Program-made: the position numbers and the translations under genes | Shown: one piece after another, positions 9,927 through 48,809 of the stretch | How the letters are laid out: each line of letters starts with the position of its first letter | Numbering within the stretch: position 1 is the first letter of the stretch | From: Balanoglossus misakiensis | Taxonomy: Eukaryota > Animalia > Hemichordata | Assembly: GCA_040954595.2 (NCBI GenBank) | Contig: CM082593.2 | Location: 2,453,830-2,517,829, forward strand | Direction: 5' to 3' | DNA: 64,000 nt | The notes under the pieces: generated by a model | What the model saw: the letters and a program-made list of their open reading frames with translations, nothing else | What the model was told of the DNA's origin: nothing | The model's database searches: none

Positions 9927-10188
9927 ACTTTGCGAAATCCTTGTGTTTTCAGTCACTTGTGGAACTCACATGTGGAACTCTACTCAGTGGTATTCTGATC
10001 AAGAACAGAAGCAGTCATCTTCATCCGCTGTTAAGAGCTGATCGTTGCAGACGTAAAACACTTGGATGTAATCATGTGGTACTGCGATCAAAGATTTGTG
10101 ATGTAGGAAGGATTTTTACCATGTGCTGCATTGGAACTGACGAAAATATTTGTGTATAAATTGCAAAAGTGAAAAAAACCTTGTCAAC

Positions 10189-16100: not shown

Positions 16101-19100
16101 CATAGAAGCTCATTGCCACAGTCGGATGCTCAGCGCCACGGCAACGCAGCAACAACAACAAAGCGAGCAGGAAGAGGCGGAGGCTGCCGACAAGAAACCA
16201 GTCGAGGTCACCATACACGTTGAAGATATCCCTGAGGAGGAAGAAGAAGAAAACCAAGGTGAGTGTGACTATGGCAACATCAGACTGGCACGTATCACTG
16301 ATACAGCGTACATTATATAATCGATGAAATGTCATGTCTTTGCATGAAATTGGTTCTACTGTCCCAACACAGGCATGAAAGCTTATGCTGTCTGTGATTT
16401 TTACATGACATCATTCTTTAATCTGTCTCAACACAGGCAAGAGCCGGACTGTATCAACGACCTCAGCTGATGGTGAAGACTCTGGCACAGAGTGTGACAC
16501 TCAACACAGCACGGCGCCACACCCGGCAACCTCAGGGTATGCAATGGCACAGTACATAGCGATGCAGCGACAAGAATCCAAAGATGACAATGGTAAGACA
16601 CACTAAATGAGTTGGTCTCTCTTTTACCCTCTATGATACAATTATCTGTGAATAATGACTGACTTGTACCCTCCCTAGTACAATTATCTGTAAATAATGA
16701 CTGATTTGTAACCTCCCTAATACAATTATCTGTAAATAATGGCAGACTTGTACCCTCCCTAATACAATTATCTGTGAATAATGACTGACTTGTACCCTCC
16801 CTAATACAATTATCTGTAAATAATGACTGACTTGTACCCTCCCTAATACAATTATCTGTGAATAATGACTGACTTGTACCCTCCCTAATACAAATATCTG
16901 TAAATAATGTCTGACCTTTACCCTCTATTATATAATTATCTGTAAATAATGGCAGACTCACCCTTTATCATACAGGCAAGTCCAGTACTAGTGAAGTCCG
17001 ACGAGGCAGAGACAGGCGCTCCCAGTTTGCCAGCAACATACCCACGGCCGACGATCTGATCATGATCAAGCAGAAGAAGAAACTCCTTCTGGCCGGCTCT
17101 GAGCAGTTCAACCAGAAAGCCTCCAAGGGCATCGCGTTTCTCCAAGAACAGCACCTTCTTAAAGTGCCACTGGATCCAGTTGAGGTTAGCCACTTCCTCA
17201 GGGACAACCCCAAACTGGATAAGAAGGTCATGGGGGAATTTATATCCACCAAGAAAAACGCCAAGATTTTGGACGCTTTTGTGAAGTAAGTACATTGAAC
17301 TCATGTAAGTTTTAATTTTGGTAGCACTGAAAAAAACCTGTTATTGCTGTGGACTTCAATGATAAGATGTACAAAGTCAGTGAGACACTTTCAAATCATC
17401 ACACCCACTCAGAGTATTATGTTTTTATTTACTTATTTGTTTGTTTGTTTGTTTGTTTACTTAACCAGGTCATTTAGATTTGAAAGTACCAGGATAGACG
17501 AAGCCTTGAGAATGTACTTGGAGGCATTCCGATTGCCTGGAGAAGCTCCGGTCATCCAGCATTTACTTGAACATTTCTCTGATCAGTGGCACGTAAGTAA
17601 AACGTAAAATGGCCAGTGTTAAAAGATAGGGGGAAAGAGGCACTGAGAATCAAGTAGGGAGACCATTGGGAATATCTAAATAACTTACAGCAGAACCCAT
17701 GGATGTTTGGAAAAAGTGACCATTACCACAAAATGCACCACTACTGTCGTCACTCAACTGTAGGTTTTCAACCAGACCCTGTACTGCTTTCACTTTTCAG
17801 GCAGCAAATCACGAACCCTTCGCCAACACAGATGCAGCATTCACGCTGGCGTATGCTGTGATCATGTTGAATGTGGATCAGCACAACTACAATGCCAAGA
17901 AGCAGAACATCCCAATGACAGTCGAGGTAAGTCTGTGCTAGTGTTTACTAGTGAGTGCTAGTTCTCTATTATAGTTGCATAGTCAGCATGAGTAATAGCA
18001 GTAGCATGCGGTGCCCATCCTTGAACCTGGCAGTGAATTCCTTATCCAATCTTGTGTTTTATTTTTATACATCAGGAATTCAAGAAGAATCTGAAACATG
18101 TAAACGGTGGCCAGGACTTTGATTCGGATATGTTAGATGAAGTATACAATGCCATCAAGTAAGTAAAACTGTTTGCTGTTTGGAAACCCATGGAAAGTAA
18201 AGAAGTCAGTCAGTATTTGTCTGTGTTGTGCTGAGGTAGAAAAACAGTATTCACAATTGCCCAAAGACTTTGTACATAAACTGCAATTAATGCATGAATC
18301 ATCACATCACAGGTCTGAAGAAATCGTGATGCCTGCAGAGCAGACTGGACTTGTGAAGGAACTCTACCTGTGGAGGGTTCTACTCAAACGTGGATTTGGT
18401 CCCGGTGGTAAATTTATGCACATCCCCAGTGGCTGTTTTGACCAGGATCTGTTCATGCTGATCTGGGGACCGACTGTGGCTGCGATCTCCTATGTCTTTG
18501 ACAAGAGTTTGGATGAAACGATCATCCAGAAAGCTATCTCAGGATTCAGGTAAGTGATATTAATTCATACTGTTCATTGCTTCTCTTGTTGATCTATTCG
18601 TACTAAAGAAACGACACACAAACACAGTTTTTAATTATCAAACACGACATTCATGCAATTATCAATTTTTATCTTTGACAGGAAATGTGCAATGATATCA
18701 GCTCACTATGGATTGAGTGATGTCTTCGATAATCTGGTCATTTCACTCTGCAAGTTTACAACATTGCTTAATCCACCCGAGGTAGGTACATTTCAAACGT
18801 ATAAAATTGCTGTCTTTCAGTAAGTTTCAAGATTCTGAGATTTGGCATTCACCTATACATTGCCTGAGAAATTTCCTAAATTAAGCGATGGCCACCTACA
18901 GAAATGTTATTGTTGTCTATAACTGAATGTGTACACTTTGTTATTCTGCAGTCTGTTGAGCTGTTGCCAGTTGCGTTTGGTTCCAACGTGAAAGCTCAGC
19001 TGGCTGCCAAGACGGTCTTCGCCCTAGCACACCGGCACGCTGACATCTTACGAGAAGGTTGGAAGAACATCATGGACTGCATGCTTCAACTGTACAGAGC

Positions 19101-22100
19101 CAAGCTGCTTCCCAAGGTCATGGTCGAAGTGGAGGACTTTGTGGATCCCTCTGGAAAGATCTCACTCATCAGGGAAGAAATGCCCACCATGAAGTAAGAG
19201 AGTGAAGTGTTTATTATGAATTGTAATTTTTGTTGTAAAAGCATCATGCAGCATTAGTAGAAATCAACCATCACAGACTACATAGAGGTCACTCACTGTC
19301 TTTTATTTTTTCCCCCATCTAGTCGTACAGATTCCTCCATCTTCAGTTCATTTTATCAGTACATCACGCTGAACCCTGAACCAGCCAATCAGAGAGGACC
19401 AACCCCCGAAGACCAGGAGGCTATCCAGCAAGCACACGCCTGCATCAAAGTATGTTGTCTGTTTCCATGAGGGAACATAGATTTATATTTAGTTTAGTTT
19501 GAGTAACGACTGTACAATTAACCTGTGTGTGCATATCAACATGTTTTGAGATGTGATCCAACATGGCCAATTGTAGTATTGCATTACAAGTTCATTTGAA
19601 TTTTCTTTCAACAGGAGTGTCATCCAGAGCAACTTGTCACAGAAAGCAAATTCCTACGACTAGATTCCTTGCAAGAACTGATCAAGGCGCTGACCTTTGC
19701 GTCATCTGGCCCAGACACGGCCGTCTCCTTGGGGATAAATTACGACGAAGAAGCAGCTGTCTTTTATCTGGAATTGCTTATCAGGGTCATACTGCAAAAC
19801 AGGTAAGGATTTAATGCTAGTACACTTTAAAATCATTTGAAATATTCCTATATAACGGCTGAAATTTTGAGTACCACTTTGAGCAAAAAACCGTATAAGT
19901 ACTCTTCTGACATGAGTTCTGTCGCTTTCTGACTTCACAGAGACAGAGTGATTTCCGTGTGGCAAGGCATCCGAGATCACCTATACAATTTGATAGTCAA
20001 CGCCACTGAGTACAGCATGCTGATTGACAGAGCTGTGGTGGGAATTCTGCGCCTGGCTATTCGATTACTACGCAGGGAAGAAATGGCACCTCAGGTGAGT
20101 GTTCATCCACCAAGCCCCATGTTGATACGTGTACCATAAAGGGAGAAATATTCAAAACGAGAGAAGACAGGCTCTTTTATAGATCACAAATGGACCTCAT
20201 TAATACCATGAGAGTATAGTGCAATACTGTATGTACCCAACATTACAGAACATTCCTATACCTCATTTTATAGGTTCTGACTAGTTTGCGAGTGCTCTTG
20301 ATGATGAAGCCGAACGTTGTCCAGAAAGTATGCAGACAGGTTTCCTTCGGGATGCATGAGTTGCTACGCACCAACGCTGCCAACATCCATTCCACCAGCG
20401 ACTGGTTCACTATATTCACCATCATGAACTGCGTCGGGGCTGGCATGGCTGTGCCGCAGTTGGTCCACTACCATGTGGACATGGACACCGATGTTCCAAA
20501 TGTGGTGCTTGATAGTGGTAAGTCATCGTGTCACCAAAGGTCATGGGGCCAGTTTGCACAAAGCTGCTAAAATGCAGCATGCTGTTTACTTGAAAAGATT
20601 ATGCATGTATGATAGTACATTAGGAAACAAATGCATAGATATGTGCATGTTTTTATGTTTATTAAATCACACAGGATTTCTTATCAATAAAACTCTATGT
20701 CATCTACATTAAATTTTGTAACAGGTGCACAGTCTGACAGTGAAATCTCCACTGGTTCATATGGAACAGCCACCTCTGAGAGAGGATACACTTCTGATAG
20801 CGAGTTGTATGAAAGTCAGCAGAGAGTCGGGCGTTCATCAACTGACATAGATTTACATAGCTCTGCTAGTGGTACCACAGGAGAGTGGTTGCTGGTAAGT
20901 GTTAACACTGTTGCTGTTTCAAAGTTCTCCATGTATTTTAGTGCTTTTATAGTCTCGTTTACTGTAGTCCCAAACATGACACATCACACCTTGATGTCTG
21001 TTTTTCAGGTTGGAAAGGAAGGCGAGATCGAACAGCAGCGACAACACCACCATCATCACCATCACCACCACCACCATCACCACAAGAAAATCCACAACCA
21101 GTACGAGATAGCCATTGATGAGGAACTGCAGCAGCACGACACCAAGTCCTTAATGAAGTGCTGTGAATCGCTGGCATTCCTCGTCAGAGATGCAGCACAT
21201 GTGACTCCAGACAACTTTGAAAGCTGCGTCCATTGCATCAGGGTCTTTGTTGAGGCCAGTGTCAACGGAGGTGAGCCCTGTGCTTTAGATTTTTCATTTT
21301 GAAGAGATGCTGTCTATTTGATTTAAAGGTTGGGTTTCATAAAGTAATACTACAGACCATTTCATCATGAACTGTATTTCTTCTTTGCAGGGAGGTTGTC
21401 GGCGGAATACAAGAGGCACAGACATGCCAAGGAGAAAGAGAGAGACAAGAGTGGTAAACACAGAAAGAAAAGTGGTATGAAAAAATCCAAGACGTCTCCA
21501 TCACATCTATCAAGAGTTTCCAATGATTTTGACGACAATGAAAATGATGGACCTCCAGGAGGGTACCAGTCTCTGTCCATACAAGTAAGATACTTTTTTG
21601 TACAACAGGTGGTCAATGAATGTATATGTTAATTGCACAGGGACTGTAACAAAGTGGCCACTATATATAGGTTTGATGTACTAACCATCAAATACCTTCT
21701 TTGATCAGAGACATTAGAAGCATTTACTATCTATCAGTTGTAAAGCCTAGACTTGTCTGCCATCTTTCAGTTACTCGACTTGATGCACACGCTACACACC
21801 AGAGCTGCCACCATCTTCAGTTCATGGGCAGAGGAGCAGGAACGAGAAGGACTAGAAGACAGGAAAGTGGATGCTGGGGCCAGTGCCCTGTGGATTAAAT
21901 GTTGGTGTCCACTCTTGCAAGGTATGGCCCCTGCCCTTTCTAGTTTGTTCCTTTAGGGAGTTTTCACATGTCAGGATTCAATAGCCAGTCTACCATGCCA
22001 GCCACCCCTGTTTCCGGTTATGGGGGTCCAACTTTACCATAGAAAACTATGGATTTGGACTAAACCATGCCAGTGAGAGGGTTCATATCATCCCCTCTAT

Positions 22101-23551
22101 GATTTCATCTCCAGGTATTGCAAGGCTGTGCTGTGATGTCAGGAGACAAGTGCGCATGTCAGCACTGACATATCTACAGCGCGCCCTGTTGGTGCACGAC
22201 CTGAAAACGCTGTCGGCAGTCGAATGGGAGTCGTGCTTCAACAAAGTGTTATTCCCGTTGCTTTCCAAGCTCCTGGAAAACATCAACATGCAGGATCCGG
22301 TCGGCATGGAAGAGACCAGGATGAGGTCCTCAACGCTGCTTTGTAAAGTGAGTGTAAAAGTGCCATTTCATGTTCGAAAACGCAATCGTCAATTTGACAC
22401 CATTGGTATATCTCCATTTTCTCAGTTATAATGACAGCGACTTCTGCAACTAATATAATACATGCTTGATCTTTTTTTCAGGTATTTCTACAGCACTTGA
22501 CACCTCTGTTGTCACTGCCAACATTTACAGCATTGTGGTTGACAATCCTCGACTTCATGGATAAATATATGCACAAAGATAAAAGTGACCTCTTGGTAAG
22601 TCAGCAAAATTATGACCATGTGGTTTGGAAAATATATACTTCTATTCTTAGCAACAACAAGTAATCTGCACTTATTGTGTTTGTTCTTACCATAGACTGA
22701 GCCTTCCCTTTTCTATTCCAGGTGGAAGCCATTCCAGAATCCCTGAAGAACATGCTGTTGGTGATGGACACAGCCGGAGTGTTCAATGACATGGACACCA
22801 TGGAAGGAGACCATTCCCAGCTGTGGGAAGTCACCTGGGAACGGATCGATTGCTTCCTTCCGGGATTACGGGATGAAGTGTTCAAACCCCAGGAATTGAG
22901 TAAGTGTAACAAATATGGTATTACTTCTTGTTAATAAACCTGTGGGGTTGGTCCAGTATTTCTACATCATTTCTTCTGAATATGAACTGTTTTATGTGCT
23001 GTTTTCTTTCAGTGAATCCCAAACCTCATAGGAGTAAAGAAGTCACAGAGGCACCCAGTCAAGATACAAGTATACCGAGAGATGCACCAATCTCTCAACA
23101 ACCACCACCCCAGTCACAGCCAGTACCACCAGAAGAGAATGCCATATCTGGTGGTATGTTCACAATCTAAGATTTGCTTTACTGAAGGAAGCCATGAGAA
23201 GGCGTTTAGTGTACACTGTGTACCTGTATTTTGTAAGAATAGTCTTTTAATAGTCATTTATTTTCATAGTATCCTCGTTCATTCACAGAAGCCAGCCAGC
23301 CAAGACCCGGCAGTCCGGAGCCCACAACCAACCAACCAACACCACAGCCTTCGCCTGCCAGTGCTGGCGGCAACATCATCCTGCAACCGCCACTGCCCGC
23401 TCTGAGCAGTCCCGGCACCAGCACCAGTACAGTGGTGACTTCTGGATCGGTGCCCATCTTGCTGAACCCCCAGCTGATGCAGGGAACACCCATGCCTGTA
23501 TTGGCAGTCACCCAGCAAGCCCAGGCCATCACCACGGAGTCAGCCCCATGA
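10189..23551 (+). CDS. GBF1: Golgi brefeldin-A-resistance Arf guanine-nucleotide exchange factor 1 (DCB-HUS-Sec7-HDS1-3)
   Basis: ~34 exons, e.g. 10189-10302 ([23 protein letters not shown]), 12654-12785 ([12 protein letters not shown]), 13076-13194 ([24 protein letters not shown]), 15803-15904 (HUS box LYLNYDCD), 17469-17592 (Sec7 FRLPGEAP), 17801-17926 ([12 protein letters not shown]), 22115-22347 (EETRMR), last exon 23289-23551 (VPILLNP...TGA). Confidence 0.97.
16627..16975 (+). repeat. 42-bp minisatellite, ~8.3 copies, in a GBF1 intron
   Basis: Unit ccctccctaatacaattatctgt(a/g)aataatgactgacttgta, starting at about 16627, 16669, 16711, 16753, 16795, 16837, 16879 and 16921. Confidence 0.95.
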
Positions 23552-26145
23552 TGCGACAGATGGCATCTGCACAGATACGAAAACAGATACTTTAAGAACA
23601 TGCATACATATATATACAACTTGACAGATTTTATGTGTACTTGCATGTGTTCTAGAGATCATTCTGATTAGTGATTTACTTCTATAGCATGTAGATATTA
23701 TACAAACTGGCTGTTAACACATTAGTAACAGATGTGTAGTACAGTATCTTGTAGGGAGACAGTAATGTGTATGTGTCACAAAACTAACACTTACAAGACA
23801 ATTATGCATTAAGATCCCCAAACTCTTGTTGCGAATAGGACTTCTCAGGCCTTGAGTATAGATTTCACTTTGAAGAACCTTAATTTCCTAGTCTAGTACT
23901 GCCATATTTCTCTTCAAGAACTAGTCCCAAGGAAATACCAGTACCTTTGAGTTGAACTGTGCTGGCAGATAAAACATGCGTGTGTTTGGTCCCCTGTTCT
24001 GTTTGGCTTTTAGCGTTTAGTTTCTTTAGGCAATTTGTGTTTTCCCCCAGCGACATTTGTTTCATATGTGACACTTGTACAGTATGACTGAATCGGTATC
24101 AGATGTAATATAGCAGTTGAATGGTGTAATATTGTAAAGTTGTACTTAAAAATGGAAAAATTTACTGACTGTTGTTGCCCTTCCCCCAGAGTGTAAATGT
24201 ATGACGTTTACCCAATCGTGAAGTATGGCAGGGTCTTCCAGTGTTGTGTTTAACAGAGATCCCGAATCCTGATAAGTAGCTGTAAATTTTCCAGTTTTGA
24301 ACACATACATGAGATGGCCATGAGACAGGGTCTTATATGCATTTCATTAATTCCAAAGTAAGCATATCAAAAGTTTCAATGTTGAGTATATTTCTCTCAA
24401 AGTACAGAACTTGTGTTCTATTTTTCTTCATGTTGTACATGATATGATGCATTGTTTGGTGTTCTCTATTTGTACTGTAAGATTGTGACAGATATGTCTA
24501 TGTCTTGTAAGTGCATGAACCCTTCGAAGAGAACTGTGTCATCAGTTGCAAAATTAATTTGTATTGGTTGCCATGTTAACTTACAGCCCTTCAATAGTAG
24601 TATCTTTTGTGCTAATAAGTTGATTTGAAATATAGCTGATGCATGTATTTGACAACTGACATGTCATCGGCATATGTGCAATTCACCATCCTGTCCAGAT
24701 GGTAGTGAGTGAGAGAAACTGTGCTAAGAATTTGTCCAGCAACCGTAGCTTGCGTTTAAAGATGTTTCCACTGTTGATACAGTCTGTAAATTTCACATGG
24801 AATGTTGAATAGCTTGCTTGACCATTATTGTTGAGATTTATGATTTGTTGAGTATAAATGTACATGCACCAACAGATGAAAATTTTATGAAGCTGTTCCA
24901 GAGTTCTACATTGTATAGTTTCAAATTTAGAAGGAATACGTCAAATTTTCCTAATGTTATGAGACATAAGTACAATATATAATTATTGATTGTTTTTCAC
25001 AAAAATTGTCATTTGAAAATGGTTCTCATACAAGAAATTCCTAAAAGGTTACAGTTGAAAATTTCTGGTATTTTATTTATATAAAAGGGATAAAATGTAC
25101 ATGTTTGAATAATATTGTCAGTGACGATAATTGGAATTGTTTTTACTGAAACAGGAGATAAACTTTATGACATCATTCACACACAAAAAATATTTTAAAC
25201 TTGCATTTGCCCCAAAAGTTTAGAAACTGATTATCTGAAGTTGCACTGATATGAATTTACAATTGTAAAGGATGTTTATATTTGGCGTTAACAGTTGCCA
25301 AACTTATCGGTTTTTCAGACCCTGTAATGAGAATAAGAGACAGGGGCAAGAACTTTCTTTTGTCTATCATAGTTATTTTTTAAGGTCACGAATGGCTGCC
25401 ACTTTCTATTTGTTCCATCATTTGTCAAAATTTAGGAATGTGCCATGAAGACAACATAAAACAAACCTTATTTCAGGCAACAATGTTACACCATCTATTG
25501 AAAGTGTATTACATAGGTATGCTTTTACAAAGCTATTTTAACTGAGAGGGTTGTTCCTTGAATTCAAATACCTTCTCAGAATTTTCAAATTCTATGTTTC
25601 ATAGTTATGCTCGGAAAGAAAATAATTGTAAAGATATTGTAAAATTAATATTTTTGTTTGTTTTGTTTTAGTAGAAAAATAATCACATTCAACTGTTTTT
25701 AGATTTCTTTTACAATAGTTCATGAAATGGTGCAATTATTTGTGTGTGTATTATAGAAGTTCAGGACGAAAACAATTGAACAACCAAAGAAGTTTAACGC
25801 TCATTAAACGAATATCATTGAAGAGAATAAATTGACAGGTTTTAGTTAATATTTTCAAGCCAGCTTGTTGCTAGAATGTTAAAATTTTATGCAATGAATC
25901 TGTCGCCCTGTGAAGGCGGGGATCCATGATAGATGTAATGGCAACTGTTATGTTCTATTGGCAGAGAAATTCTCAGCCATGCACTGATAACATGGTTCAT
26001 TTTAAACCCTGTTTATTGGTCCTAATTTATACCATGTGTAAATTGATTCGGATGTAATAATTGTTTGTATTGGATGTGTTGTACATTCAAACAGTGAATA
26101 AAATGTCTATAAACATCACACATCTTTGCAATGCGTTTGGATAAT

Positions 26146-27940: not shown

Positions 27941-30900
27941 TCAATTCTTTTGAGTTTTGTGTATGCGGCTCGTGTTGGATTGTCCTGAAGACGGGGAGTC
28001 GTTGTTTGCACCATCCTTTCTGTATCTTTTAGCGTTCTCGTCTCTTGAATCCTGTGATCCACTGGTCCGCTTTCTGGTTTTTCTGAAGGTATAGTGTCCA
28101 CCATTCTGTCTTTGATACCTGCCAACGATACCATCAATCATACCGCTGGCTGTCTCCACATTACATTCTTTACCACTCACTCTAAAGTTGAATTCTCTAT
28201 CAGGAGGAATCTCGCCTGGATATGGAATACTTGGAATCGCGATATATGTGTTGGTAAGGTCCTGGATCCTTTGAATTGTCTTTCCACGGTGACCAATCAG
28301 AAGCCCAAACAAAAAATGTGGAACAGGGACACCCCTTGAAACTGACCGTTGAAGCCGCAGTGTAGAATACTGGTGTTCATCACATCCATTAAACATGTTT
28401 TCATTGAGGCTTCTTGTAGTTTTAGGGGATTTTCTCCTGAACTCTGTTTGTGACTTGCTGTCATGATCATACCTTTCGAAACAGCTGTCTGAACCACTTG
28501 ATTCTGTTGCAGTATACCTGGTAGATATCCCAAGTTTCCTTTCATCACGGAGACCATCTGCGCCCACATCCTGTACAACATGTTTGGTTTCTCTGATGTG
28601 ATCTTCCATTTCTCCCATGCCTGACGATCTGCGATCTCGCCAGTGTTCATCACTTGAGAAACTGTCAGTGTAGTCATACTGCTTGTTGTTGTCATCTAAA
28701 CGTCTCTCTGCAAGGACTGCTGTGGTTTCAACGTGATCATAAGGCAGAGGGGACATTTCCTCACTTCGTGAAGACTCACAGGATCCTTGATGTGTGAGGT
28801 ATGCAACACCCAATTCTCTCGCCTTGCCCATTTCCCTGACTTCGTCTTCACTTTGTAAATCACGCTCCCGAACACGATATCGACTATTCGGCTCTTCACA
28901 GCTTTCGTCACACCGGTCAGTCTCCCACCTTTCATCTGCTGATGAACTACTGGTGACGTTTCTCAGAATAACCACTCTTCGGCCACCATCCCCGTCCACT
29001 GTTGTGCGGACCTTCTCTCTGTACATCAAGTGTGGAGAGTGCAATGTCTGATGCACCGAATGTGGAGAGCGGACTGCTTTATACGTCACATGTGGAGAGT
29101 GCTTAGTATACTTGTAACCTGCATCTACATCTGGTTTTCGTAGGTTGTTGTAACTGTCGCCCCTCTCTTTGTTTTTGTATCCTGATAGCTTTGCTTTTTT
29201 CAGTTGACAGTACAGTTCCCAGACATCCTTTTGTTCTTGATTCATCTTCATCAACCACTTGAGTTTTCTTTTTCTTTTTAAGTGGGGATACAAGCTTCCC
29301 ATCCCATGATTATATTTTGGCATATCATCACAGTCATCACTTAAGTACTCTAAGGTGCTTGCAGTAGCAGCATCTATGAAGTTGCTCTTTTTCAACCGTA
29401 CTCCAGCAGGAGTTTGCTGTTTCTGATGCAGACTCTCTCCGCTAACACTGCCATCCACAAAGGATTCCAAGTAGTTGTGTGCAAACTCTTCCTCAGTGTG
29501 TCTTTGCTGCTTCACACCTGCCTTTGCTCTTCGAGGCGTACTGGGCAGACCATCTCTTCTTTTCTTTAAGGGGGACTTACTGGAAACCGAAGAACCTCCT
29601 GACGTAGAGACATTTTCGAGGAAAGGTATGGTTCTTGGTGGAGTCTTGCTCCATTGTTGGCAAACCTTCTCTAACCACTTGGCCTGGGCCCTGGCTTTGG
29701 CCTGCGCTTCATCATCAGCATCTGCATCAGCATCTTGAGGCTGTGGATGTGAAGGACTGGGGTCTTTGTCCACTGGCCTCGCCTTATCAGACACCGAGCC
29801 TGAATCGTGAGCTGTTTCCCCTTCAATGTTTACATCTTTAACCGGGTTGGAAGCATGAGCATCAGAGGGCATCGTGGTGTACATGTGATGCATGGTTGCT
29901 GGTTCATACGCTGAAGGTGGATAGTACTGCTGGGCAAACTGTTGCTCCATTTCTTGGTAATGGCTTGCATATGATGACATGTAAGTATAGTAATCTTCCC
30001 AGCTGAAACCGTAGGGATAATTCCATGGATTAGCTGCCCCGTGGGAACTTCCAGCATATGTAGGAATGGCGTTCATGTTTGGCATCGTGAAATTCACATC
30101 TGGGTAAGGCTGACCACTATACATGTGTTGCCATGTGCTAGACATTGCATTGTGGAGGGACATTTGTTCAACTGTATCTTGGAGGGTCGGTTCAGCAGAC
30201 AATGTTCCTGTGGAGTAGACAAACAAATATCAACTTATATTAAGTTCATTCATTGTTATATCTGTGATATACCCCTCAAAGTGACAAATCTCAACATGTT
30301 ATAGACATTTGACTACCATTCTCTTATATTTAAGTCATGCAAATTATATGTTGATGTATGACTGGTTTTCTTACCTCCACCTTCAACATGCTGAGCCATC
30401 TTCTGTACGAGATTCACCATTTCCTGCATGGTTCTTCCATACTGGACATTTGAAGTTGCCAAGTGGACATTGCTTTGTAGAACGTTAAGGAGATTGCTTA
30501 TCATTTCCTTTTCACCTTCTGCTGTTGGAGCTGTACTACAGTGACTGCCGCTAGTTGTCTCTGATGGCTGTACATTTACATGTACTGAAGCATGCTCGTC
30601 TCTCCTGTCAAAAGAATTCACCTTATTCCGATCTTCACTTCCAGGCATGCATGGGTCAAGTGTACCATGATATGAACTTCCAGAATCATTTCCCTCCATA
30701 GCTTGATCCTTTTGTACAGAACTACCGTGCTCACCATTTCTAGTCTTGTCCTGCATGTTTTGGCCACCAAAACTCCCATCCTCAGTGCAGGTTTTGAATG
30801 CGTCCTTACCAGAAGCTTCTGTGCTTTGTGGATGATAAGATGTTCCATCAGATGGAAAGTGCTGATTTGTCTGCATATCAACTTTGGACTTTCTGTTATC

Positions 30901-33900
30901 TAATTCTTCCTTAACACCCAAAGCACCATTTGAGTCTGGATTCAGTGTGTTCTTCAAATCCATTTCCTCACTGGAAGTTTTTTCTCCACTCCCCTTCTCT
31001 TCTTGGTCAGAAGTACTGGAAACTGATTTGTCATCTGTGTCAGTCTTCCATGGTATCGGTTGTACTAACAGACTTGGCTTTTCTTTGACTGGTCGGGAAG
31101 AGGAACTAAAGACTCCAGAGTCACCATTTTTATCTTTGTCAGACAGTGTGTGTTTTGCACAGACGTTTGTCGATTTCTGGACAACTGTGTGATCACTTGG
31201 AGGAGATGACTTAGGTGGCAGTGCTATTTGCTGGTCTTTGGGTTCCTTAACTTCCGCACTTTCTCCTCCAGGATTTCCTTTGATATGTTCGCTTTCATCA
31301 AAATAGCCAAACATACCATTACTCCCTTGACCATCAGCATTTTCATTTATGGCAGATGACATACTACTGGAGGAAACTGGTTTTGTAATTCCAATCTGAG
31401 ATATTGGAAATCTGGAAACACTTGCAATATCGGAAGTGTCAAATCCAGGTTTATTGATGCATGGACTGTGAACACTCTCCTGAGTGGGATGACTGCTTGC
31501 TACAGTGACAGCTGTGGCATTCGCATGTACTGTGCTTTCATCTTTGGTAAACTCGGCAAGGTGTTGAATTTGTTTGGTTGGCACAGGCGTACGCTGGGCA
31601 GCACACTCTTGAGATGGAAAACCATTTTCTTCTCTGTTCTCATATCTTTTACTCCTGGGATCCCTTGAGTCGACTTTAACTCTTTCAGCGTTATGAATGC
31701 TTACACTGTATTTCTGGGCCTTCTGTAAAGACGCAAGATCGAACTGGCTTCCTCTACATCCCCTCAACATTAATTTGCCTCTAGGATTCTTCTTTTGTTC
31801 TGGCGGAGCTGGCCCTCTGTCTACGACTTCCTGTTTTACTCCATCATGTTGAGCAGGTATGCCATTAATGCCACCAGTCGTATTGTTATTTCTATCGTCC
31901 ACTTTATCCACCTCTGTGAAGGAAGGGGTCCTCGACACTGTTTGTTTGCTACATTGACGACTCTTGTCTTGGGCACTACTTGTGTCCACGGTCTGGACAT
32001 ACCAGACAGGAATCTCCTTGGCATCTCCGACTAATGTATTCGAAATACGTCTCGAAGAGTCTCCATTGTTATGAGCATCTGTAGTTCCCTCAGCAGTACG
32101 TTCACTAGAGTAGGCCAGATTTTGAAGAGGATGGCCAATCATGTTGTTACAGTTTGAAGAACTTCCCAAGGACCCATCTGCACATTCCTTTGTCATTAAG
32201 GTATCACAACCACTATCCTTCGCCAACGTTGAAACTCTCTTCTCTATACGATTCCTACCATTAGCATGTTCATAGCCTAGTGGTTTTACCACATCTGGAA
32301 CAGCAGCAGTACTGTCATTTGATGCATCACTTGCTTCAGCAACATCAGTCGGTGGAGTAATGTCCACTTGAGATCCTCCACTTGGTCTCTGCTGGACTGG
32401 AAGAGTTGAGATTGGCAAAGTTATGAAAGTCTTCTCACTTCCCGATCCTGGTGATATGCTTAGGTCATTTAAGCTTGCAGTTGAGTTAGCAGAAGGCATG
32501 GAATCGGCAGTTAGTCCCCCATTCTTATGGCCACCATTCGCTACACACAATCTATTGTGGATATCAGTATATACAATGTTACGCCAGGTGGGAACTTCCG
32601 GTGTTCGTTGTACGTCACCACTGTTACAGACATTGCCAACGCTTTCACTACTACCAGGTTGCTGACTGCTTTGACTCTTCCCATCATTCTCCCCAACAGG
32701 AACGTTTTCAGCTGGTGAGCATTGCATTTGACTTGCACTTCTCATTTGTAAATCCTTCTCCTTTGCGGTATCCACTACACCAAAGCAATTATAACTTACT
32801 CCAGCAGAATTATCCCGAAGCACAGAGTCAAATTTTGGGAGTAAAACACTGCATTCTTTAAGCTGAAACTTTTTCTGTTGGGTTTTTGTGACATAAGGTG
32901 CATTAAACCTTGGACGTGGAAAGCTCAGGACACGTGACTTATCACTTTGATCACCCGGTTCATTTTTCTGTTCGTATTTGGAAGACTCGATGCTTGCACT
33001 GTATCTTTGATCCATTTTGTTCATCAAGTTAAGTTCTTTGTCATCTTCCTTTATTTTGTCGCAATGGACAGGATCACAATTACCTTGGCATGAAGAACCT
33101 TTTGTGTGATGTTCGTCAGGACATACCAGCAGTGGCTTTTTGTTGTGGGTACGCTTACTTTCAGTCACATCAAGTTTTCTTTTCATCGTTTCCACTTCAA
33201 ATGGCTTAGGAATCTGATTTGCTTCTTTGGCAGTTTTGTCTTCTCTGTGTCCAATAGAACCATCTAAAAATCAAAATGGTAATTATTTTCGCATTTTACC
33301 ATCATTAGATGTTCTCATTGCGATCAATACAAATTTACCTCACTTTATTTAATACACGCTTACCCGTTTTTGAAGGTTTCCGCTGCATAAGCCGTTTCTG
33401 GTGCGATGGCACGTGACTCACTTTACTTTTATCTCGTATGCGTAGAATTCCGTAAAGTGTTCCGGACTGTCTAGCAAGGTTGCCAAAACCTAGAAATAAA
33501 AGAGCCTTTCAATAAGTAAATATGATCAACGTGAATTATCATTGTTGTACATTAAAAATACTCGTATACTCGTGTAACGATCGTCTGGTCTTACCTAGCT
33601 CTTCGGTAAATTCGCAAGCTGGAAGGAGAAACATTTTGTTTTCCATTTTTGTCCTCTTGTTTGGTGTTTCATATATGGTGACAGCGGCCTGTGTAGAACA
33701 GGTACAATAAATAGTTAACTGTAGCTATTATTGCTCTAATGTCGTAAGTCCTAGTCCACGAAAGTTCAGTGTAAAGCCTTATTCGAACAAAGCATATAAA
33801 TGCGCATGTGCGTGTATATGTAACCAATCACGTTAATGAATAGTTCGAAATTTATCGTACCTTGTTACCTCGCTGAAGGTGACTAGCCAATGACTGGATA

Positions 33901-36900
33901 GCAACTTGTGACGTAATATAGGGTTGCACTATGAAGACACTGTATGTGCCTTCAACGCATTCGACTAAAATGAACATAGAAAATAGAATGCAAATGAAAA
34001 TTCATGGGATATATCATACAAAAACACTGTCCACCAATTTATTGGGTTTGTTCATTACCTCTGTTGAAACTGTAGACAGAAATACTTAATATCGTCATCA
34101 ATAAGGTATGAAATTAGCAATTTATACCTGGATCTTTCCATGCAGCCGCAATGCAGTCCGTACATCTATCAGAGAATGAACGCTCCTTCAAATGGTCGAT
34201 CGAAACAGACGTATCAAAGCTTATACTGCCTCCCCTATATAAGAAACAACAATTTAGGTCTTAGTGTCTGAATGATATCAAAGAATATCGTTCGTATGGT
34301 ATCTAGGAATTTGTTCAGAATATGGATGAGAATGATTATAAATATGACATGTTTTCGCAAAAAAACATCAGTCGCCGATATTCTGTTATACTTACAGTTT
34401 AATTGGGAAAGCTTTTCCCGCAACAAACTCGACTACGCCTATAGTGTTATTTTTGTGAAGCAAAGTTCCCTCCCATGCCACTGTAAAAGGAATGTCTTCA
34501 TCAGCAAACGACACTGTCTTCGGTCTCTCATCCACTTCCGGTACCTGCATGCAGGACATGCGTATTAAGATTACATCATCACAAGTATTGAAGCCCCATG
34601 AGCTGTCACGAATTATTTTCGTGGTTTTATTCTCAAACTTAGATTGGGTCATCAAAAAAGTTTACTGACATGTATTGTTATCGTTCGATGGTGGCATCCA
34701 TTTATTCTTCTACCGGATATCATCATCTCCGCATGCTCAAAATGGTATCGTCCTACGGCTAAGGATAAGCAGAAGACTAAGACAATTTTATCGATAAACT
34801 TAGCTGTAAAAGTGATAGTTATTGGGACTGTAAATAAGAAAACAATACTTACCCAGACGAAAAACTAATATATGTCATTATTTCAAAATGAACAGACAGT
34901 ACAATTATCGTGTCAATACCTTAAAGATTAATGGCCCTGGAGGTATGTGGCCAATGTGAAATTTGTCGATATGGAAATTCTGTAATACGTAATAAAATCG
35001 GTAGGTCGTGAAAATAAGGGACAGGACCGATTACAGAACAGATTATTCCTTTATTTATACATGTACACGGTCAACAGACCATCACAACTGATATGATGTG
35101 TATAATTATCTTCCATTTATGAGGACGATACGCACAGCACGCACGCGTTCAACCCACGCGTTGTTTTGTTTGTACACCATCATGTGACTACGTCTGACGA
35201 CTTTGTCATTGATAGTACTGTATATCACTGGATTTTTAATGTTGGTACGTGTGAGCACGTTCAGTTTACCACTGGTATATATATATAGCCGGGAACGCCT
35301 TGTCCGTGTCTGGGTATAGGTATATAATATTTTCCTTTGAAATTAATTACGTTTAAACGTAATCCCAGCTGAACAAATCATCGTATATAATATATGTAGA
35401 TTGTGTCATAACGCACAACCATTTATTGTTATTTGCGTGATGTGTACACATGTGAGATTAACCCAGACAGATGGTGAATACAAACCTCTACTGTCTATGG
35501 TTCCGCTGAGTTTATTGTGAGCGGTTTCATTTCATGTTTTACTAGAAAAGTTCATGTCCAAATCTCAGTCCAGACAATGTATCAGACATATACTTACGTT
35601 TTGTGGTTCTTTGTAAAAAACGGCAGGTGTGCCTATCTGGTATGTTACGACTGCATAAGGCAAGACTTGTCTTGGTCTTCTGCTGAGTTTCCCTTGCTTG
35701 TCAAATTCGTACAGGTATATCTGTGGAATGTACAAACCAGTGCCAAGTTCATTTTAAGAGAAGGGGGAGTTTCCAAAAGCCGAATTGAACTACTGTTTGT
35801 TTATCATTGCCTCTCCTAGGCACACTACATAATTAGTACTACATGTAATATTGTAAGACTTTTTAATACAAGTACCAGGCTATATCTTACCTGAATTTAA
35901 ATAAATTCTGAAAAGATGGGAATAAAAAAGCAATGTGGTGATAACGACGCTTTTGATGACAAGCGTACATATAAACTGATAGCAGAAGTCGTAGCTGTCA
36001 TAAAACGTTTGATTCAGAAAAATCAATACTTTTTAAACGATATCAGGCCGCGATGTATTCCGCCCTCCTATCTGTAGCCGTTCTTATTGTATATTTTCCC
36101 ATCCTCAGTGTGCATGTCAATACGAGGCAGAACTGGAAAACGTGTGTTGCCTGCCACTTTACTTACCATTGTTCTCTTCATAGTATTTGAGACTGTATCT
36201 GATTCACGGGCTGTGTCGTAAGCAATGTGGCAGTCATAATTCTCAGTCGGCAGAATCATAGCTTCGGATAAACTTTCCCTTGGCAGTACTGACTTCACTT
36301 TCCCCCTTGTAACCTGTAGTGATATCACAAACGATACTTGTTATATAGTTATATTATAATGATGTTCGATATCCAAATGATTAGTTAAAGTCAAGTATTA
36401 TATAAAACTATGAATAATAGTAACTTACTTTGAATACAAGTAATTGTGGATCTGTTAACGCCCTCGCTGCAACGCACACATCCGGGCATCTCCATAGAGA
36501 CACGCCCTTTGTGTTGTCACCTAAATGGAACAAATACAGACCGCATTTATATGACAAGAAGGTTCCGTTTAAAAATGGCAAAAATTAAAGTTAGTGTAGC
36601 AAGGGATATAGGGTCAGCAAATTATCAAAAGGTAGAACAACAGAAGCAAGTCACAAAGGCAGAGGAAAAATAAATAAATAAATAGTACCCTACCGATTCT
36701 TCCGAAGGTATTAGAATTACATTTATCTGTGCACAATCCGTGTCTTGTTATACTGAACAACTTGGACCCATTACTTTCAACTCGATACAAGAACAGTTCT
36801 TCGAGATCCTTCATTGGCCTGCCTTCATCCTGCATTTCTTTCCTTTTGGCGAGATATTCTTACGGACAGAGAAAAAAAAAAGATTAAAAATTAACCTTAT

Positions 36901-37462
36901 AGGTGAGCGTGCCATCGTGAAACGAAGTCTTCAGATGTAATTTGTTTCTCATAGCATCAGTCAATCAAACGTCATTATCCCACTTTGTATAGTATATGCA
37001 ATATGTTTTTTTACCAAACAATGACAATTTATAACAAATACACTAAAAAATCACAAAATATTCTAAAAGGTCATTTTCATCATTTAACAGAAAGAAGTGT
37101 AGGATATACTCACCGGATTGAAGTTTTCCGTTCTCAATCATCTCTATTCCTGTTACTTGGAGTCGGGCAAACTTCGCTCCCCACGAATTCTTCCTAATTT
37201 CATTTTTTATTTCAATGCTTTCTTTAGACGTCAAATCGACGCTTTGCAGAAGATTGTCTGTTAATAGACAAAACGGACATCGACATTCTGTTCCAAAATC
37301 CTAATTACCACGACCACAAACTGGTTAATCGTGCAGAGCGTATATGATTAAAATCGGTGGGGATGTGATTAAACTAAAGTACACGACAGTTACATCAAAG
37401 ATGGCGACCTGGCACTTACCTCGGACAGGAAAGCTGTCCTTTCGTTTGGACAAGGTGATCAT
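27941..37462 (-). CDS. TASOR/TEX15-family protein: DUF3715 pseudo-PARP + SPOC-like domain + long disordered region + C-terminal KH domain (~2149 aa)
   Basis: 13 GT-AG exons join in one open frame (6450 nt): 37462-37420, 37257-37114, 36858-36694, 36520-36429, 36313-36167, 35720-35598, 34544-34396, 34234-34128, 33964-33861, 33688-33595, 33489-33364, 33263-30375, 30207-27941. Motifs: YLAKRKEMQDEGRPMKDLEE, ITRHGL, GDNTKGVSLWRCPD, VFKVTRGKVK, PTENYDCHI, IYLYEF...RRPRQVLPYAVV (DUF3715); VAWEGTL...LASHLQRGNKAAV...MFLLPAC...LYGILRI (SPOC-like); GLLIGHRGKTIQRIQ (KH). The start codon could lie further upstream. Confidence 0.85.
28121..28342 (-). other. Type-I KH RNA-binding domain
   Basis: VPVPHFLFGLLIGHRGKTIQRIQDLTNTYIAIPS...FRVSGKECNVETASGMIDGIV; intact GxxG loop (GHRG). 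Confidence 0.9.
33364..34544 (-). other. SPOC-like domain (5 exons)
   Basis: Begins with WxGxL (AWEGTLL) and ends with a helix, AAV, FLLP and LYGIL; sits directly after DUF3715, as the SPOC domain does in TASOR. Confidence 0.6.
35598..37257 (-). other. DUF3715 / pseudo-PARP domain (5 exons)
   Basis: Order and wording of motifs (KRKEM..GR...LEE; GL; G..GV.L.R..D; KV..GKVK; PT.NYDCH; YLYEF...RPRQVLPYAVV) match the TASOR/TEX15 N-terminal domain as recalled. Confidence 0.85.
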
Positions 37463-39442
37463 GTCGGTGATTTGAACTGAAAAAAAAGTTTTTGTTGATC
37501 AATATACTGCTGCGCAAATCGTGTCGCACACCTTTTAGTGGATTCACGTCCTTCATTGGATGAATTTTGTCACGTGATTGTTTAAATTGTGCTGAGATGC
37601 CAGTTTTGATAACACTTGTTTCAACAGATATCACAAATTGACTATTCTTTTTAATAATGAATAATTAATCCGCATGAAATTAATATAACGATGTCTCAAA
37701 CCCACGAGGGACAATACTAACGTGAAAAAACATATTTCATGTCAACAAACCGAGCTTTGAAATTCTAGTCACATGAAATTGGGTCACAACATTTTAACAA
37801 ATGCTCAATGCTTTGTAAAGTGCCCAACGGGTTAAATTCCTCTAGTATTAACGCATGCATTTTTCGGTAGCCTAGAAACTTAACCAAATGAGTCCTGACT
37901 GGGTACTTCACAAACAAACAAGTTGAGACCTGTTCATCTTCAACAGTTATCGAACTCTGTGAACTCTATACTTTATTGCAGTATAAAATAACTTCGTGAT
38001 AAATGATGCTACAGTTCCTTTGGTGGCCAATCATTTCACGGAGAACAAGCGTGATATTGTACCGACAGCCACAGACATACGGACAGACAGGGGTAGGTTA
38101 ATCATACACAGGGGTTCCATGTTTGCAGAAGTTATGCGCCACTCTTATGTGTAGGCAAACAAGTAGTGCATATTCCTTTTGGCAGTTTAACATGTACAGT
38201 AATCTAAACTCAAACCACACCTTGAGAACTATAGCGATCTGTTTCATTAACTATTGAACACTTTAATGGTGAATTTGAAACGATCTCTGTGCAAGGACAC
38301 CCAGCTTTAAGAAGTTTCTTAAACACTGGATCAACTACAGGCACATGGTTACAAGTTTAATCACCCCAATTCCCTCTATAGAAGTTCTACTTTACCAAAG
38401 AATAGAAATCGTAGCTAGTGGTGAAAGGGATAAATATTCAAGACACTGTTGAATATTAGGGGCACTCACACCTCTGTGAGATCAGTGTGAGACCCGTATC
38501 AAGTTTCATTACATTTGGTTTATATTGTGGGTATGTTGGTGTAATTGCAAAAGCTGTTAAATGGCAACACTACTCTTCATTTTCACCTTATTTGGTATGG
38601 ACATTCTGAACAAATTACCTACGTGAAAATGATCATTACACGTGTAAATTGGCAATTTAAACTTGACCAAACAGAGAATGGGATAGTTTGGGCGAAACAG
38701 TATCTATTCAAAGTGATATAAAACATTGTGAACTTTCATTTATCCCACATTTTGATAGACACAGTGCGTGTACAACGACGTCATATGACTAAAATCACCT
38801 ATGCATGAGTATCCACCTACCTGTACTATATTGTCATTGGGTAGGCATAAGGGTCATCTCCAAATTTGACACCCAAGGTCACATTGTAGGCGATGGCGTG
38901 CACAGTTCTGTACGAAGTTATGCACCTCTATTTTTGTTTAAAATCCTTATAGCCAAAAAAGAATGATCTTTCTTTTCACCTCAGATAAGTGGGCGTGCAC
39001 GTGTATGTCATGTGAGTGTGAAGTGTGATGCGATAAAGACTTTTCGAAAAGGTTTTATAAGTCTTGCTTCCTCAAAACGCCTGACCCGTCATCAAAGGTA
39101 AAAACGTACAATTGCACGGGGCAAAAATCGCAATGCAGGAACGACGTGCATGATATCCCCTTCCGAAGAGGATATCGCACGTGCACGTGCAGACGACGCC
39201 ACTCGAAGTGTTGTTGAAACCCAGCCAGCCTATCGGAGACATTTACTGACCAGGACGAATTCAGCAGTGGTATACCGTATATAGGCCTATACGTATACTG
39301 ACGGAATAATGGAGGGGTTGGGCCAGTCTTCAGCGCAGACTTCATGCCCGCCGTCGAGGCTACGGCTGTCTTGACGTACACGGAAACGCGGGCTCTATTT
39401 CATTTGATTCAGACTGCGATCTCAGTCTCACCTCTTTCTTAC

Positions 39443-40223: not shown

Positions 40224-40996
40224 GTAAATGGAAATTTTACAATAGTCAACTGCCTGCAGCTTTAAATAACGAGTCACTGGTTCTGCACACACTACTAGCT
40301 GAATTGCTCGGTGGTAGGTTTTTGAGCAAGCCACTACAAACCGTTTGCGTAGTTCTACATAGTAGTGTAGTACAACTATACATATACGCACAGTAGGTTT
40401 GGTATTAAAGTACATTGGCTTTAGTACCTTAGTAGTAGCATGGAGCATGGCATGGAGGTACTAGTACCTCCATGGTAGTAGGATCATGTACATATGCGTT
40501 GCGAGCAGGGAGACTCAAGTAATTGTAAAAGGTTGATATTAAAACCCTTCGAAACGGAGGGGGACAGGACTGCAAGGTACAGATATGAAACCCGACCATG
40601 ACCAGCAGAGATAAAGCACCTGTAACCTTCTGACAAGTGCTTTTTCTCAGCTGGTCGGTTTTTCATATTTTTACCTCAAGTTAACCTATCTGTTTCATAT
40701 ATTGGGTTTACAACAATTTGAAAATAGAAGTAATAGAAGAATAGTACTAGTCGACCAGAATAGACTTACCGTTGCTTCCATGTACAAATGCTACTTTCCG
40801 TCGTCCAAGGACAGGAGGCTAATTTTTACTTCTGTATGGGTGATCTGTGCCTTATAAAATCCCGGAACAACCACAAAATAATCACTAGTGTTTTAGTGTT
40901 CACTGTCACGCAAGTGTTAAAGTACTGGCTTCAAAGTTTGTTCCATCTTTTGCTTCCGAAAGACGAAGACTACACAACACTGCTCCAACACGGACG

Positions 40997-42451
40997 ATGT
41001 CCCTCACATGCACATCTACAAGCACCTCTGGCAGCGCACCACCAGCTCGAACGAACCACGCGAGTGTTTGGTACGACAACAAGTTTGTGGTGTATGCAGG
41101 GAATGCAGACAGCAAGTACCAGTGCTTTGATGATTTATGGGTGCTGGATACAGCATCTATGACATGGTCTCAGCCCACTACCTCAGGATCATCCCCTGGC
41201 CCCAGATGCCATCACACAATGAGTCTGGTTGGCAGCAAAGCCTACGTCTTTGGAGGATGGACAAGTGAGTACGCGAGAATTCAACCGTTAATCTGACTTC
41301 TCATCCCCTCCTCTTCATACCTGAGCCTAAACTTATCAACGAGAACAATCGGCTTTAGACCAAACTATTAATGCGATAGGGTTGAACAAGGGGCTATTGT
41401 AGGCGGAGTCTGTATGATGATGCAGTAATCATCCGTTTGCTTTGTGTGGGTGGGGGAGCCCCCTTCCTGCCATTTAACCCTTTCGACACCAAAGTTGAAC
41501 CTTGTCTACCTTTATCTCTTGATCAAGAACTGTTGGCAGTAAAAAATTGTGACCACGCGGTCCAAAATAAAGTCGAATAAGTGAGAGAAAAATACACAAA
41601 ATTGAGAAAAAGTAGCACTAGCATTTGGCAGGGAAAATTGTCATCTTCAAAGGGTTAATCCAACCACGTATTATTGAAGGAAGATATAGGGAGTGTGATG
41701 AAGTTGGTCAGTTCCTTTGATGTCAAACTGTTTCATCTCTACACAAGGTAAACGACGATGCAACTTTCTTCATTCCCTGGATCTGGAAAGCTGGAAATGG
41801 GAAGACCTGACCCCAAAGATGTCGGCTGTTGATCCCCACTCTAGTCACGCAGCCACTGTGATAGATGCCAGTACAGTTCTTGTGTTAGGGAGAGGTGAAA
41901 CAGGCACCCACGCCAAATACGGCTGTAATGTTGATTTCCTGGATGTAAAGAGACTCCAGTGGACCACTTTTCCGGGAAGTACGATATCCCGCGCTGGGCA
42001 TTCCATCACCTTCCAGCCAGACGTTTCCATGAGGTACGCTGTGGCCTACGGGGGCAGACAGCGACACATGGTGGAACAGGTAGTCTGCAAAGCCAAGGGA
42101 GCACCCCCGAAAATCTTCCATTCGAAAATACCGGATGAGGTTCTGAAGTCGAGTAAGAAGGTCGAAGTGCCGCCTGGCCGGAGCTATCATTCCGCCACTG
42201 ACGTGAACGGACTTCTGCTCGTCTACGGAGGATTCATTGAAGGGAAGAGTGTGCGGGGTCTTGTGGATGGAGTCGATCAAGTCTTCCTCTTTGATGTGAA
42301 AAACAATCGTTGGTTGGCACCGGAGAAGAAAGGTGATTGGCCCCATAGGGCGGGACATACAGCAGCGCGAATTGGCGAGAGGAGTGTGCTGCTCTTTGGT
42401 GGTGAACACGCCAAGAAATTCTACAACGATGTTCATGTCATATCGTGGTGA
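40997..42451 (+). CDS. Kelch-domain beta-propeller protein, KLHDC9-like (~323 aa)
   Basis: Exons 40997-41264 and 41748-42451 (phase 1). Kelch repeats PPARTNHAS, PGPRCHHTM..VFGGW, PPGRSYHSA..YGG, HRAGHTA..LFGG. The segments GGWTSKRR, SSHAAT, LGR...KYG and TISRAGHS resemble KLHDC9. Confidence 0.85.
41474..41658. mobile_element. piggyBac-like MITE (~177 bp) with TTAA target-site duplication in the kelch gene intron
   Basis: TTAA|CCCTTT...AAAGGG|TTAA; a related end (ggtgctgaaagggTTAA) occurs near 57992-58007. Confidence 0.55.

Positions 42452-44795: not shown

Positions 44796-48809
<4,014 letters not shown>

Follow-up and report, generated by a model that had tools for sequence, protein, structure and literature searches.

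The closest described relatives of the protein considered here are TASOR, TASOR2 and TEX15, which share an N-terminal pseudo-PARP domain named DUF3715 or RDTS. The DUF3715 domains of TASOR and of TEX15 each support LINE1 silencing, and that of TEX15 is able to replace that of TASOR; the same source states the molecular role of the domain in both proteins as unknown (PMC10578480). The pseudo-PARP of TASOR binds single-stranded RNA weakly, and its DomI is required for binding to MPP8 (PMC7532188). [quoted passage not shown] TASOR-like proteins of invertebrates are described as DUF3715-SPOC-DomI chains, and TEX15 as vertebrate-specific (Schopp et al. 2023, PMC10578480). SPOC proteins regulate transcription and RNA processing, with many gene-regulatory roles, and a lancelet DUF3715-SPOC paralog has been noted beside a TASOR-family gene (Appel et al. 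2023, PMC10111866). This paralog is likely XP_019635360.1 of Branchiostoma belcheri, the passage in question giving no accession. Here we describe a predicted gene of the acorn worm Balanoglossus misakiensis, located at 27941-37462 on the minus strand of a 64,000-nucleotide stretch of DNA (contig CM082593.2, positions 2,453,830 to 2,517,829), which is called the window throughout. The gene appears to join a pseudo-PARP, a SPOC domain, a long disordered linker and a KH domain in one chain.

Judged from its sequence, the window protein is neither TASOR, given its lack of DomI, DomII and PIN and its place outside the TASOR clade, nor clearly TEX15. It is best described as a predicted member of a third DUF3715-SPOC subfamily that includes proteins of acorn worms, amphioxus and perhaps an annelid. 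The DUF3715-SPOC-KH architecture is apparently undescribed so far, as the first-pass annotation of this DNA had supposed. A literature search, whose scope took in few subscription journals, found neither a DUF3715-KH protein nor any hemichordate member, and the term "KH domain" is absent from the text of PMC10578480, whose Figure 2 and supplements may list such an architecture. We tentatively favor the view that the protein is a catalytically dead, RNA-tethered silencing adaptor that acts outside the HUSH core.

Three domains in one predicted chain

The gene model comprises 13 exons that total 6450 nucleotides and encode 2149 amino acids, with a single, terminal stop codon. All 12 introns (100-1053 nucleotides) of this predicted splicing pattern are GT-AG and in phase. 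The first-pass annotation had spliced eleven small exons in frame to two giant open reading frames to give one protein of this same length, and the reconstruction held. The two frames run from stop to stop at 30313-33270 and 27941-30229, and contribute the giant exons 33263-30375 and 30207-27941. The coding part of exon 1 (37462-37420) specifies amino acids 1-14; where translation begins is uncertain, since an acceptor AG just upstream, at 37477, implies another exon. When Pfam was applied to the 13 candidate exon pieces singly, DUF3715 appeared in two and KH_1 in the last; another yielded a weak, unrelated DCR match (E 0.07), and the remaining nine gave nothing.

Support for a single gene comes from another acorn worm. 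When the last exon was searched against longer proteins, 2 of 7140 candidates came back; these are two isoforms from Ptychodera flava, each with KH_1. One of these, the RefSeq model XP_070544893.1 (P0001, isoform X2, recorded as "uncharacterized"), aligns collinearly with amino acids 6-2118 of the window model in one high-scoring segment pair, with 35% identity overall. Identity between the two species is high in DUF3715 (164/216, 76%) and SPOC (119/164, 73%), intermediate in KH (36/73, 49%) and low in the linkers, at about 25-28% (the first linker having 231/830 and the stretch just before KH 64/255). Word-based searches likewise recovered no proteins other than these two isoforms; with the last exon they gave no match in the range of 414-1320 amino acids, which is weak evidence of absence.

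Residues common to both species extend across 11 of the 12 junctions, including 30375/30207. The junction 33364/33263 falls in unconserved sequence, and its basis is phase and splice signals. One could argue that transcripts stop short of the giant exons or of the KH exon, such that little or none of the full-length product is made and DUF3715 and KH rarely end up in one protein. This would fit with the predicted status of the window splicing, with the unconserved junction, and with an AATAAA hexamer at 33353 on the minus strand, 10 nucleotides into intron 11. This hexamer could define a short isoform with DUF3715 and SPOC only, or it may be a chance occurrence in AT-rich DNA. Furthermore, a second P. 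flava isoform, X3 (P0002), has SPOC, linker and KH without a pseudo-PARP. However, the introns of 100 and 167 nucleotides are too short to hold a promoter, no poly(A) hexamer occurs in intron 12, whose junction (30375/30207) lies inside a conserved block, and isoform X2, a RefSeq model, unites DUF3715, SPOC and KH in one chain. We therefore regard the loss of the full-length product as highly improbable. Isoform X3 itself begins with seven different residues and then joins the shared sequence at the exon that matches the window exon starting at 34544.

The pseudo-PARP (amino acids 17-232; 35616..37252, minus strand) is spread over exons 37257-37114, 36858-36694, 36520-36429, 36313-36167 and 35720-35598. 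In the window, exons 5 and 6 alone match DUF3715 profile positions 79-126 and 130-150 with E values of 0.0033 and 0.014, each score being under the curated cut-off. The two exons thus match consecutive positions of the profile, which argues that the exon model is more than chance. Full-strength scores for DUF3715, and for the SPOC fold, were obtained with the N-terminal 422 amino acids of the ortholog. This segment alone gives a Pfam DUF3715 match at E 1.9e-21, where Pfam on the whole protein reports KH only, and it matches the TASOR pseudo-PARP structure 6TL1 in the PDB by sequence at E 1e-14. The ortholog model superimposes on 6TL1 with a Z score of 24.8 (root-mean-square deviation 2.5; 197 residues aligned), in agreement with the initial domain call, and its next neighbor is PARP13 with a Z score of 18.2. 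The Foldseek lists were taken up by PARP domains and have no bearing on SPOC.

The residues R88, S125 and M197 occupy the positions of the PARP H-Y-E triad, and the same residues are present in P. flava. The aligned residues of TASOR are its degenerate triad, L-Y-Q (PMC7955679, Table 1). Neither triad of active PARPs or ADP-ribosyltransferases (H-Y-E or R-S-E) is found, given that His, Tyr and Glu are all missing and the third residue is not acidic. The domain is therefore, as far as its residues can tell, a pseudo-enzyme. Catalysis was considered as a separate option, since R-S at the first two positions recalls the R-S-E toxins, and was rejected because the Glu is missing.

Directly after the pseudo-PARP, amino acids 247-410 (33428..34520, minus strand; exons 34544-34396, 34234-34128, 33964-33861, 33688-33595 and 33489-33364) are predicted to form a SPOC beta-barrel. 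For SPOC, the spliced protein of the window itself was compared with a home-built, TASOR-only profile, which matched amino acids 260-365 with an independent E value (iE) of 4.6e-5; the best value among reversed and 20 shuffled control sequences was 9.9. Pfam SPOC gave no match on the ortholog. A profile of the family reaches the SPOC domain of FPA at E 1.3e-6, and the ortholog model of this region, with a predicted local distance difference test score of about 90, resembles FPA with a Z score of 14.1 (root-mean-square deviation 2.4; 121 residues aligned). Other matches are PHF3 (13.4), SPEN (12.8), RBM15 (11.9), SPOCD1 (11.8) and Chp1 (10.9). The model alignment used TASOR-type homologs, such that the fold partly reflects that alignment. 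Atlas matches for SPOC (0.88) and KH (0.80) were both below 0.9 and are treated as leads only.

One column of the SPOC basic patch was matched by visual alignment to an Arg in FPA and is presumably equivalent to SPEN R3552, the conserved Arg of phosphoserine-reading SPOC domains (SPEN, PHF3, DIDO and RBM15). It holds Ser297 in the window; both P. flava and Saccoglossus have Cys, and B. belcheri has Lys. Other SPOC domains are basic at this position. Phosphoserine binding is described as dependent on such an Arg, in whose place SPOCD1 has Cys (Appel et al. 2023, PMC10111866).

Near the C-terminus, amino acids from about 2021 to 2086 (28133..28330, minus strand) form a type I KH domain. The last exon of the window matches Pfam KH_1 at E 2.3e-9 with 37.3 bits (cut-off 21.5), and the ortholog does so at E 1.3e-12. 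The GxxG loop is intact in both species, as GHRG in the window and GNRG in P. flava, which bears out the claim of an intact KH domain. Therefore, it is likely, going by these motifs, that the protein itself binds RNA through KH. The best match among solved structures for both species is the KH domain of MEX3C (PDB 5WWX, E 1.6e-6 and 8.5e-7), and descent of the domain from a MEX3-like gene is no more than a lead. Overall, the order DUF3715, SPOC, disordered region and KH that had been read from the window is supported for each folded domain by profile matches, and by fold comparisons for the first two.

The sequence between SPOC and KH is likely a disordered linker in its first part, which is encoded by the 2889-nucleotide exon 12 (30375..33263, minus strand). 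This exon is rich in Ser, Asp, Lys and Glu, contains no Pfam family, and has short conserved islands at amino acids of about 920-975 and 1040-1110. Isoform X2 of P. flava lacks about 200 amino acids that are found in X3 and in the window (E 7e-25; amino acids 525-722 of the window model), at approximate coordinates 31100-31700 within this exon, which suggests alternative splicing inside it. A conserved, amphipathic-looking segment at amino acids 1350-1395 (30206..30510, minus strand) ends at the 30375/30207 junction and is identical to the ortholog at 37 of 46 positions. PDB and family searches with this segment and the other linker islands gave no match, and the segment had no match among the stored relatives besides P. 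flava. The last exon (27941..30207, minus strand; 2267 nucleotides) encodes a Tyr-rich island (30028-29861), a basic cluster near amino acid 1705 that resembles a nuclear localization signal (NLS) and is conserved in P. flava, and then the KH domain and stop codon.

Missing TASOR and TEX15 domains and the place in the family

The first reading of this DNA had also noted the lack of DomI, DomII, PIN and TEX15 domains, and the searches concur. Profiles for these domains found nothing in the window or the ortholog (best iE 0.83). For DomII and PIN, Pfam on the ortholog and on both giant exons was negative and local profiles gave iE values of 69 and 0.83. TEX15 domains were found neither by Pfam in the window exons and the ortholog nor by profile. 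The DomI profile, built like that for SPOC from 42 PIN-bearing TASORs, is positive in TASOR of Nematostella, lamprey and amphioxus (iE 5e-11, 3e-11 and 9e-10). A profile for the Periphilin-binding segment gave an iE of 38 in the window, and the same profile also misses the invertebrate and lamprey TASORs.

These absences bear on the role that can be proposed. A HUSH scaffold role is unlikely, as judged from the domain content, because DomI is what binds MPP8 and DomI is not detected. For the same reason, the earlier proposal that RNA recognition and the silencing scaffold are combined in one chain was overstated. The protein might nonetheless be an alternative HUSH scaffold that binds MPP8 via a diverged surface, with KH replacing Periphilin. 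Its SPOC domain is homologous to that of TASOR, the conserved segment at amino acids 1350-1395 could be a docking site, and two of the three DUF3715 trees, albeit weakly, put the subfamily next to the TASOR clade as its sister. Also, the DomI profile misses several invertebrate TASOR-clade proteins, which could be due either to failure of the profile or to loss of DomI. However, DomII and PIN are missing along with DomI, which is required for MPP8 binding (PMC7532188), and conservation drops right after SPOC, where DomI would be expected (38% identity at amino acids 401-450, then 12-26% up to amino acid 700). Thus, we find this alternative very doubtful.

The relatives of the protein were collected by HMMER with the N-terminus of the ortholog, which gave 273 matches, 150 of these being listed. 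A DUF3715 tree was made from 73 of 149 extracted domains, hand-chosen to span the clades. It contains a TASOR clade of 30 rows (support 100/98), among whose members are Nematostella, amphioxus, echinoderms and Saccoglossus LOC102806952, and a vertebrate-type TEX15 clade of 15 rows (98/95). In all three DUF3715 trees the window protein stands outside both clades. Its partners in the 73-domain tree are P. flava (support 100/100), B. belcheri XP_019635360.1 (100/65) and a fragment from Owenia (86/84). An independent SPOC tree of 31 rows assembles the same group, adding Owenia (a long branch), B. belcheri, Saccoglossus LOC144356686, and then the window with P. flava, supported in this order by 96/94, 96/92, 96/85 and 99/92, all starred. 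Grouping of the window protein with the TASOR of Saccoglossus in one clade is rejected by the approximately unbiased test (p-AU 5.5e-7), the groups in this and in the parallel TEX15 test having been named after the trees had been seen. The B. belcheri protein is also the best non-hemichordate match among the matches listed, covering both domains with 31% identity at E 1.5e-46. The proposal of a HUSH-like or TEX15-like paralog stands in part: the protein belongs to the DUF3715 family, but lies outside the TASOR clade and, less firmly, outside the vertebrate TEX15 clade.

Several other observations concern the breadth of the family. At least four lines of DUF3715 paralogs exist in the Branchiostoma species taken together, with P0003, P0059, P0064 and P0125 among their proteins, and at least three DUF3715 proteins (P0007, P0118 and P0130) in Owenia. 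In a large clade of mollusc type, DUF3715 occurs by itself in proteins that reach about 4000 amino acids.

The KH domain is narrow in its known range. Pfam found KH in none of 80 listed relatives other than P0002, and in none of five further cluster members, so the architecture is not standard for invertebrate TASOR proteins, in keeping with the first-pass annotation. A profile built from the two KH sequences, for which there was no positive control, picked out the two P. flava isoforms and no others among 177 stored proteins, the next value being an iE of 6.5. The Saccoglossus member of the subfamily, LOC144356686, is a 221-amino acid fragment that does not cover the C-terminus. KH looks like a lineage-limited addition because the closest lancelet protein lacks it, and it was likely gained in the acorn-worm line.

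A putative RNA-tethered silencing adaptor

If the tentatively favored role as an RNA-tethered adaptor is correct, the basic cluster would bring the protein into the nucleus, where the KH loop would bind short single-stranded motifs in transcripts, perhaps assisted by the pseudo-PARP, which would itself bind RNA weakly. This domain would also provide the same silencing step as in TASOR and TEX15. Partners other than MPP8 might be recruited by SPOC together with the conserved islands of the linker, probably not via phosphoserine reading. By analogy with the rest of the family, and by that analogy only, transposon transcripts would be the likeliest targets and transposon silencing the likeliest outcome.

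Several findings weigh against this role. KH was found in two species only, the window species and P. flava, and at 49% identity it is conserved less well than the N-terminal domains. The lancelet protein XP_019635360.1 has no KH, so the core function of the subfamily would not depend on it; in its place are RS- and RG-rich stretches (Arg-Ser and Arg-Gly), which may be an alternative means of RNA binding. Isoform X3 of P. flava dispenses with the pseudo-PARP, and the DomI profile also misses several invertebrate proteins of the TASOR clade. Furthermore, grouping of the window protein with the vertebrate TEX15 clade is only marginally rejected (p-AU 0.043), and the deep DUF3715 placement of the subfamily is unstable, falling on the TEX15 side in one run and beside TASOR in two, never starred. 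MEX3, the source of the best KH match, is a mostly cytoplasmic mRNA regulator. Finally, since a single KH domain reads about four bases (PMC10450202), one such domain is too little to pick out transposons alone.

The resemblance of the KH domain to those of MEX3C and MEX3D invites another explanation, in which KH and the dead PARP domain hand mRNA or transposon RNA to decay or germ-granule machinery, in the manner of PARP13 (ZAP), without a chromatin role. PARP13 is the next structural neighbor after TASOR, combinations of KH with a PARP fold are known in PARP9, PARP10 and PARP14 (PMC10450202), and TASOR itself is linked to RNA decay (PMC10111866). Such a post-transcriptional adaptor would be at odds with the conserved NLS-like cluster, with the roles of SPOC proteins in transcription and RNA processing (PMC10111866), and with the mainly nuclear location of TEX15 (PMC7385494). 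We consider it unlikely, albeit worth keeping in mind.

The lack of KH in the lancelet member might instead mean that KH is incidental and that the subfamily has left transposon control to become a general co-transcriptional regulator. Saccoglossus keeps a separate TASOR-clade gene (LOC102806952), a long branch leads to the subfamily, and the many gene-regulatory roles of SPOC proteins (PMC10111866) would accommodate this possibility. However, KH retains its GxxG loop and its 49% identity amid flanks of about 25%, and both DUF3715 families that have been tested silence transposons (PMC10578480). This explanation therefore strikes us as rather unlikely.

A broader and speculative extension of the RNA-tethered adaptor, which we also judge unlikely, is that the subfamily is a third ancient DUF3715 branch, lost in vertebrates, that silences transposons without HUSH or PIWI tethering by means of its own RNA reader, being KH in acorn worms and RS/RG stretches in amphioxus. 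If true, this would make the protein a sequence-guided silencer contained in one chain, and a naturally minimal system in which to study DUF3715 function. The pairing of DUF3715 with a canonical RNA-binding fold, minus the MPP8 dock, suggests that the domain may need only an RNA tether of any kind. Also, the existence of a DUF3715-SPOC subfamily beside TASOR and TEX15 bears on the origins of HUSH and of nuclear silencing by PIWI-interacting RNAs. The reach of these ideas is limited by the occurrence of the KH form in two species and by a function that is deduced from relatives.

Surroundings of the gene and its nearest counterparts

A model with 14 exons was also considered, in which an extra in-frame exon of 60 nucleotides (34979-34920) would lie between DUF3715 and SPOC to give 2169 amino acids. 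It was rejected because its donor is weak, the ortholog has no counterpart, and the alignment score is 1058 compared to 1070 bits. The 1053-nucleotide intron 6 accordingly consists of two listed intron pieces plus this rejected exon. Also in intron 6, position 34852 is a strong donor, and the sequence ahead of it lacks an in-frame ATG. In intron 5, 17 nucleotides (35891-35907, minus strand) are set between a pyrimidine tract with AG and the sequence GTAAGA; their inclusion would shift the frame, and they are possibly a poison micro-exon or a chance arrangement. Neighbors in the window are a multicopper oxidase (3002-4381, minus strand), a Sec7-domain gene at about 10100-23600 on the plus strand that we take to be GBF1-like, a kelch-repeat gene (40889-42448, plus strand) arranged head to head with the DUF3715-KH gene, and a match to the H2A C-terminus (47476-47814, minus strand) that is presumably macroH2A-like.

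Among known systems, TASOR and TASOR2 (HUSH scaffold), together with the TASOR-like proteins of invertebrates, resemble the window protein in the N-terminal pseudo-PARP, the SPOC barrel directly after it, the long disordered linker and the dead triad. The P. flava isoform X3 finds a parallel in TASOR2, whose commonest isoform is reported to lack the pseudo-PARP (PMC7619638). In contrast to both, the window protein has no DomI, DomII or PIN, carries a C-terminal KH domain and falls outside the TASOR clade. TEX15, which acts in piRNA-directed silencing, is similar in having an N-terminal DUF3715 domain in a very large, mostly disordered protein without DomI or PIN, but the window protein has SPOC and KH, lacks the TEX15 domains and lies outside the vertebrate TEX15 clade; other amphioxus paralogs are nearer to TEX15, weakly, than it is. 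The lancelet DUF3715-SPOC paralog shares a clade with the window protein in both the DUF3715 and SPOC trees and likewise has no DomI or PIN, although the B. belcheri protein differs in its lack of KH, in the Lys at the SPOC basic position and in Leu and Gln at two triad positions. PARP9, PARP10, PARP14 and the inactive PARP13 (ZAP) offer a likeness in that they combine a PARP-type fold with RNA-binding modules in one chain. These proteins belong to another ADP-ribosyltransferase subfamily, have another domain order without SPOC and, in the cases of PARP10 and PARP14, are active enzymes.

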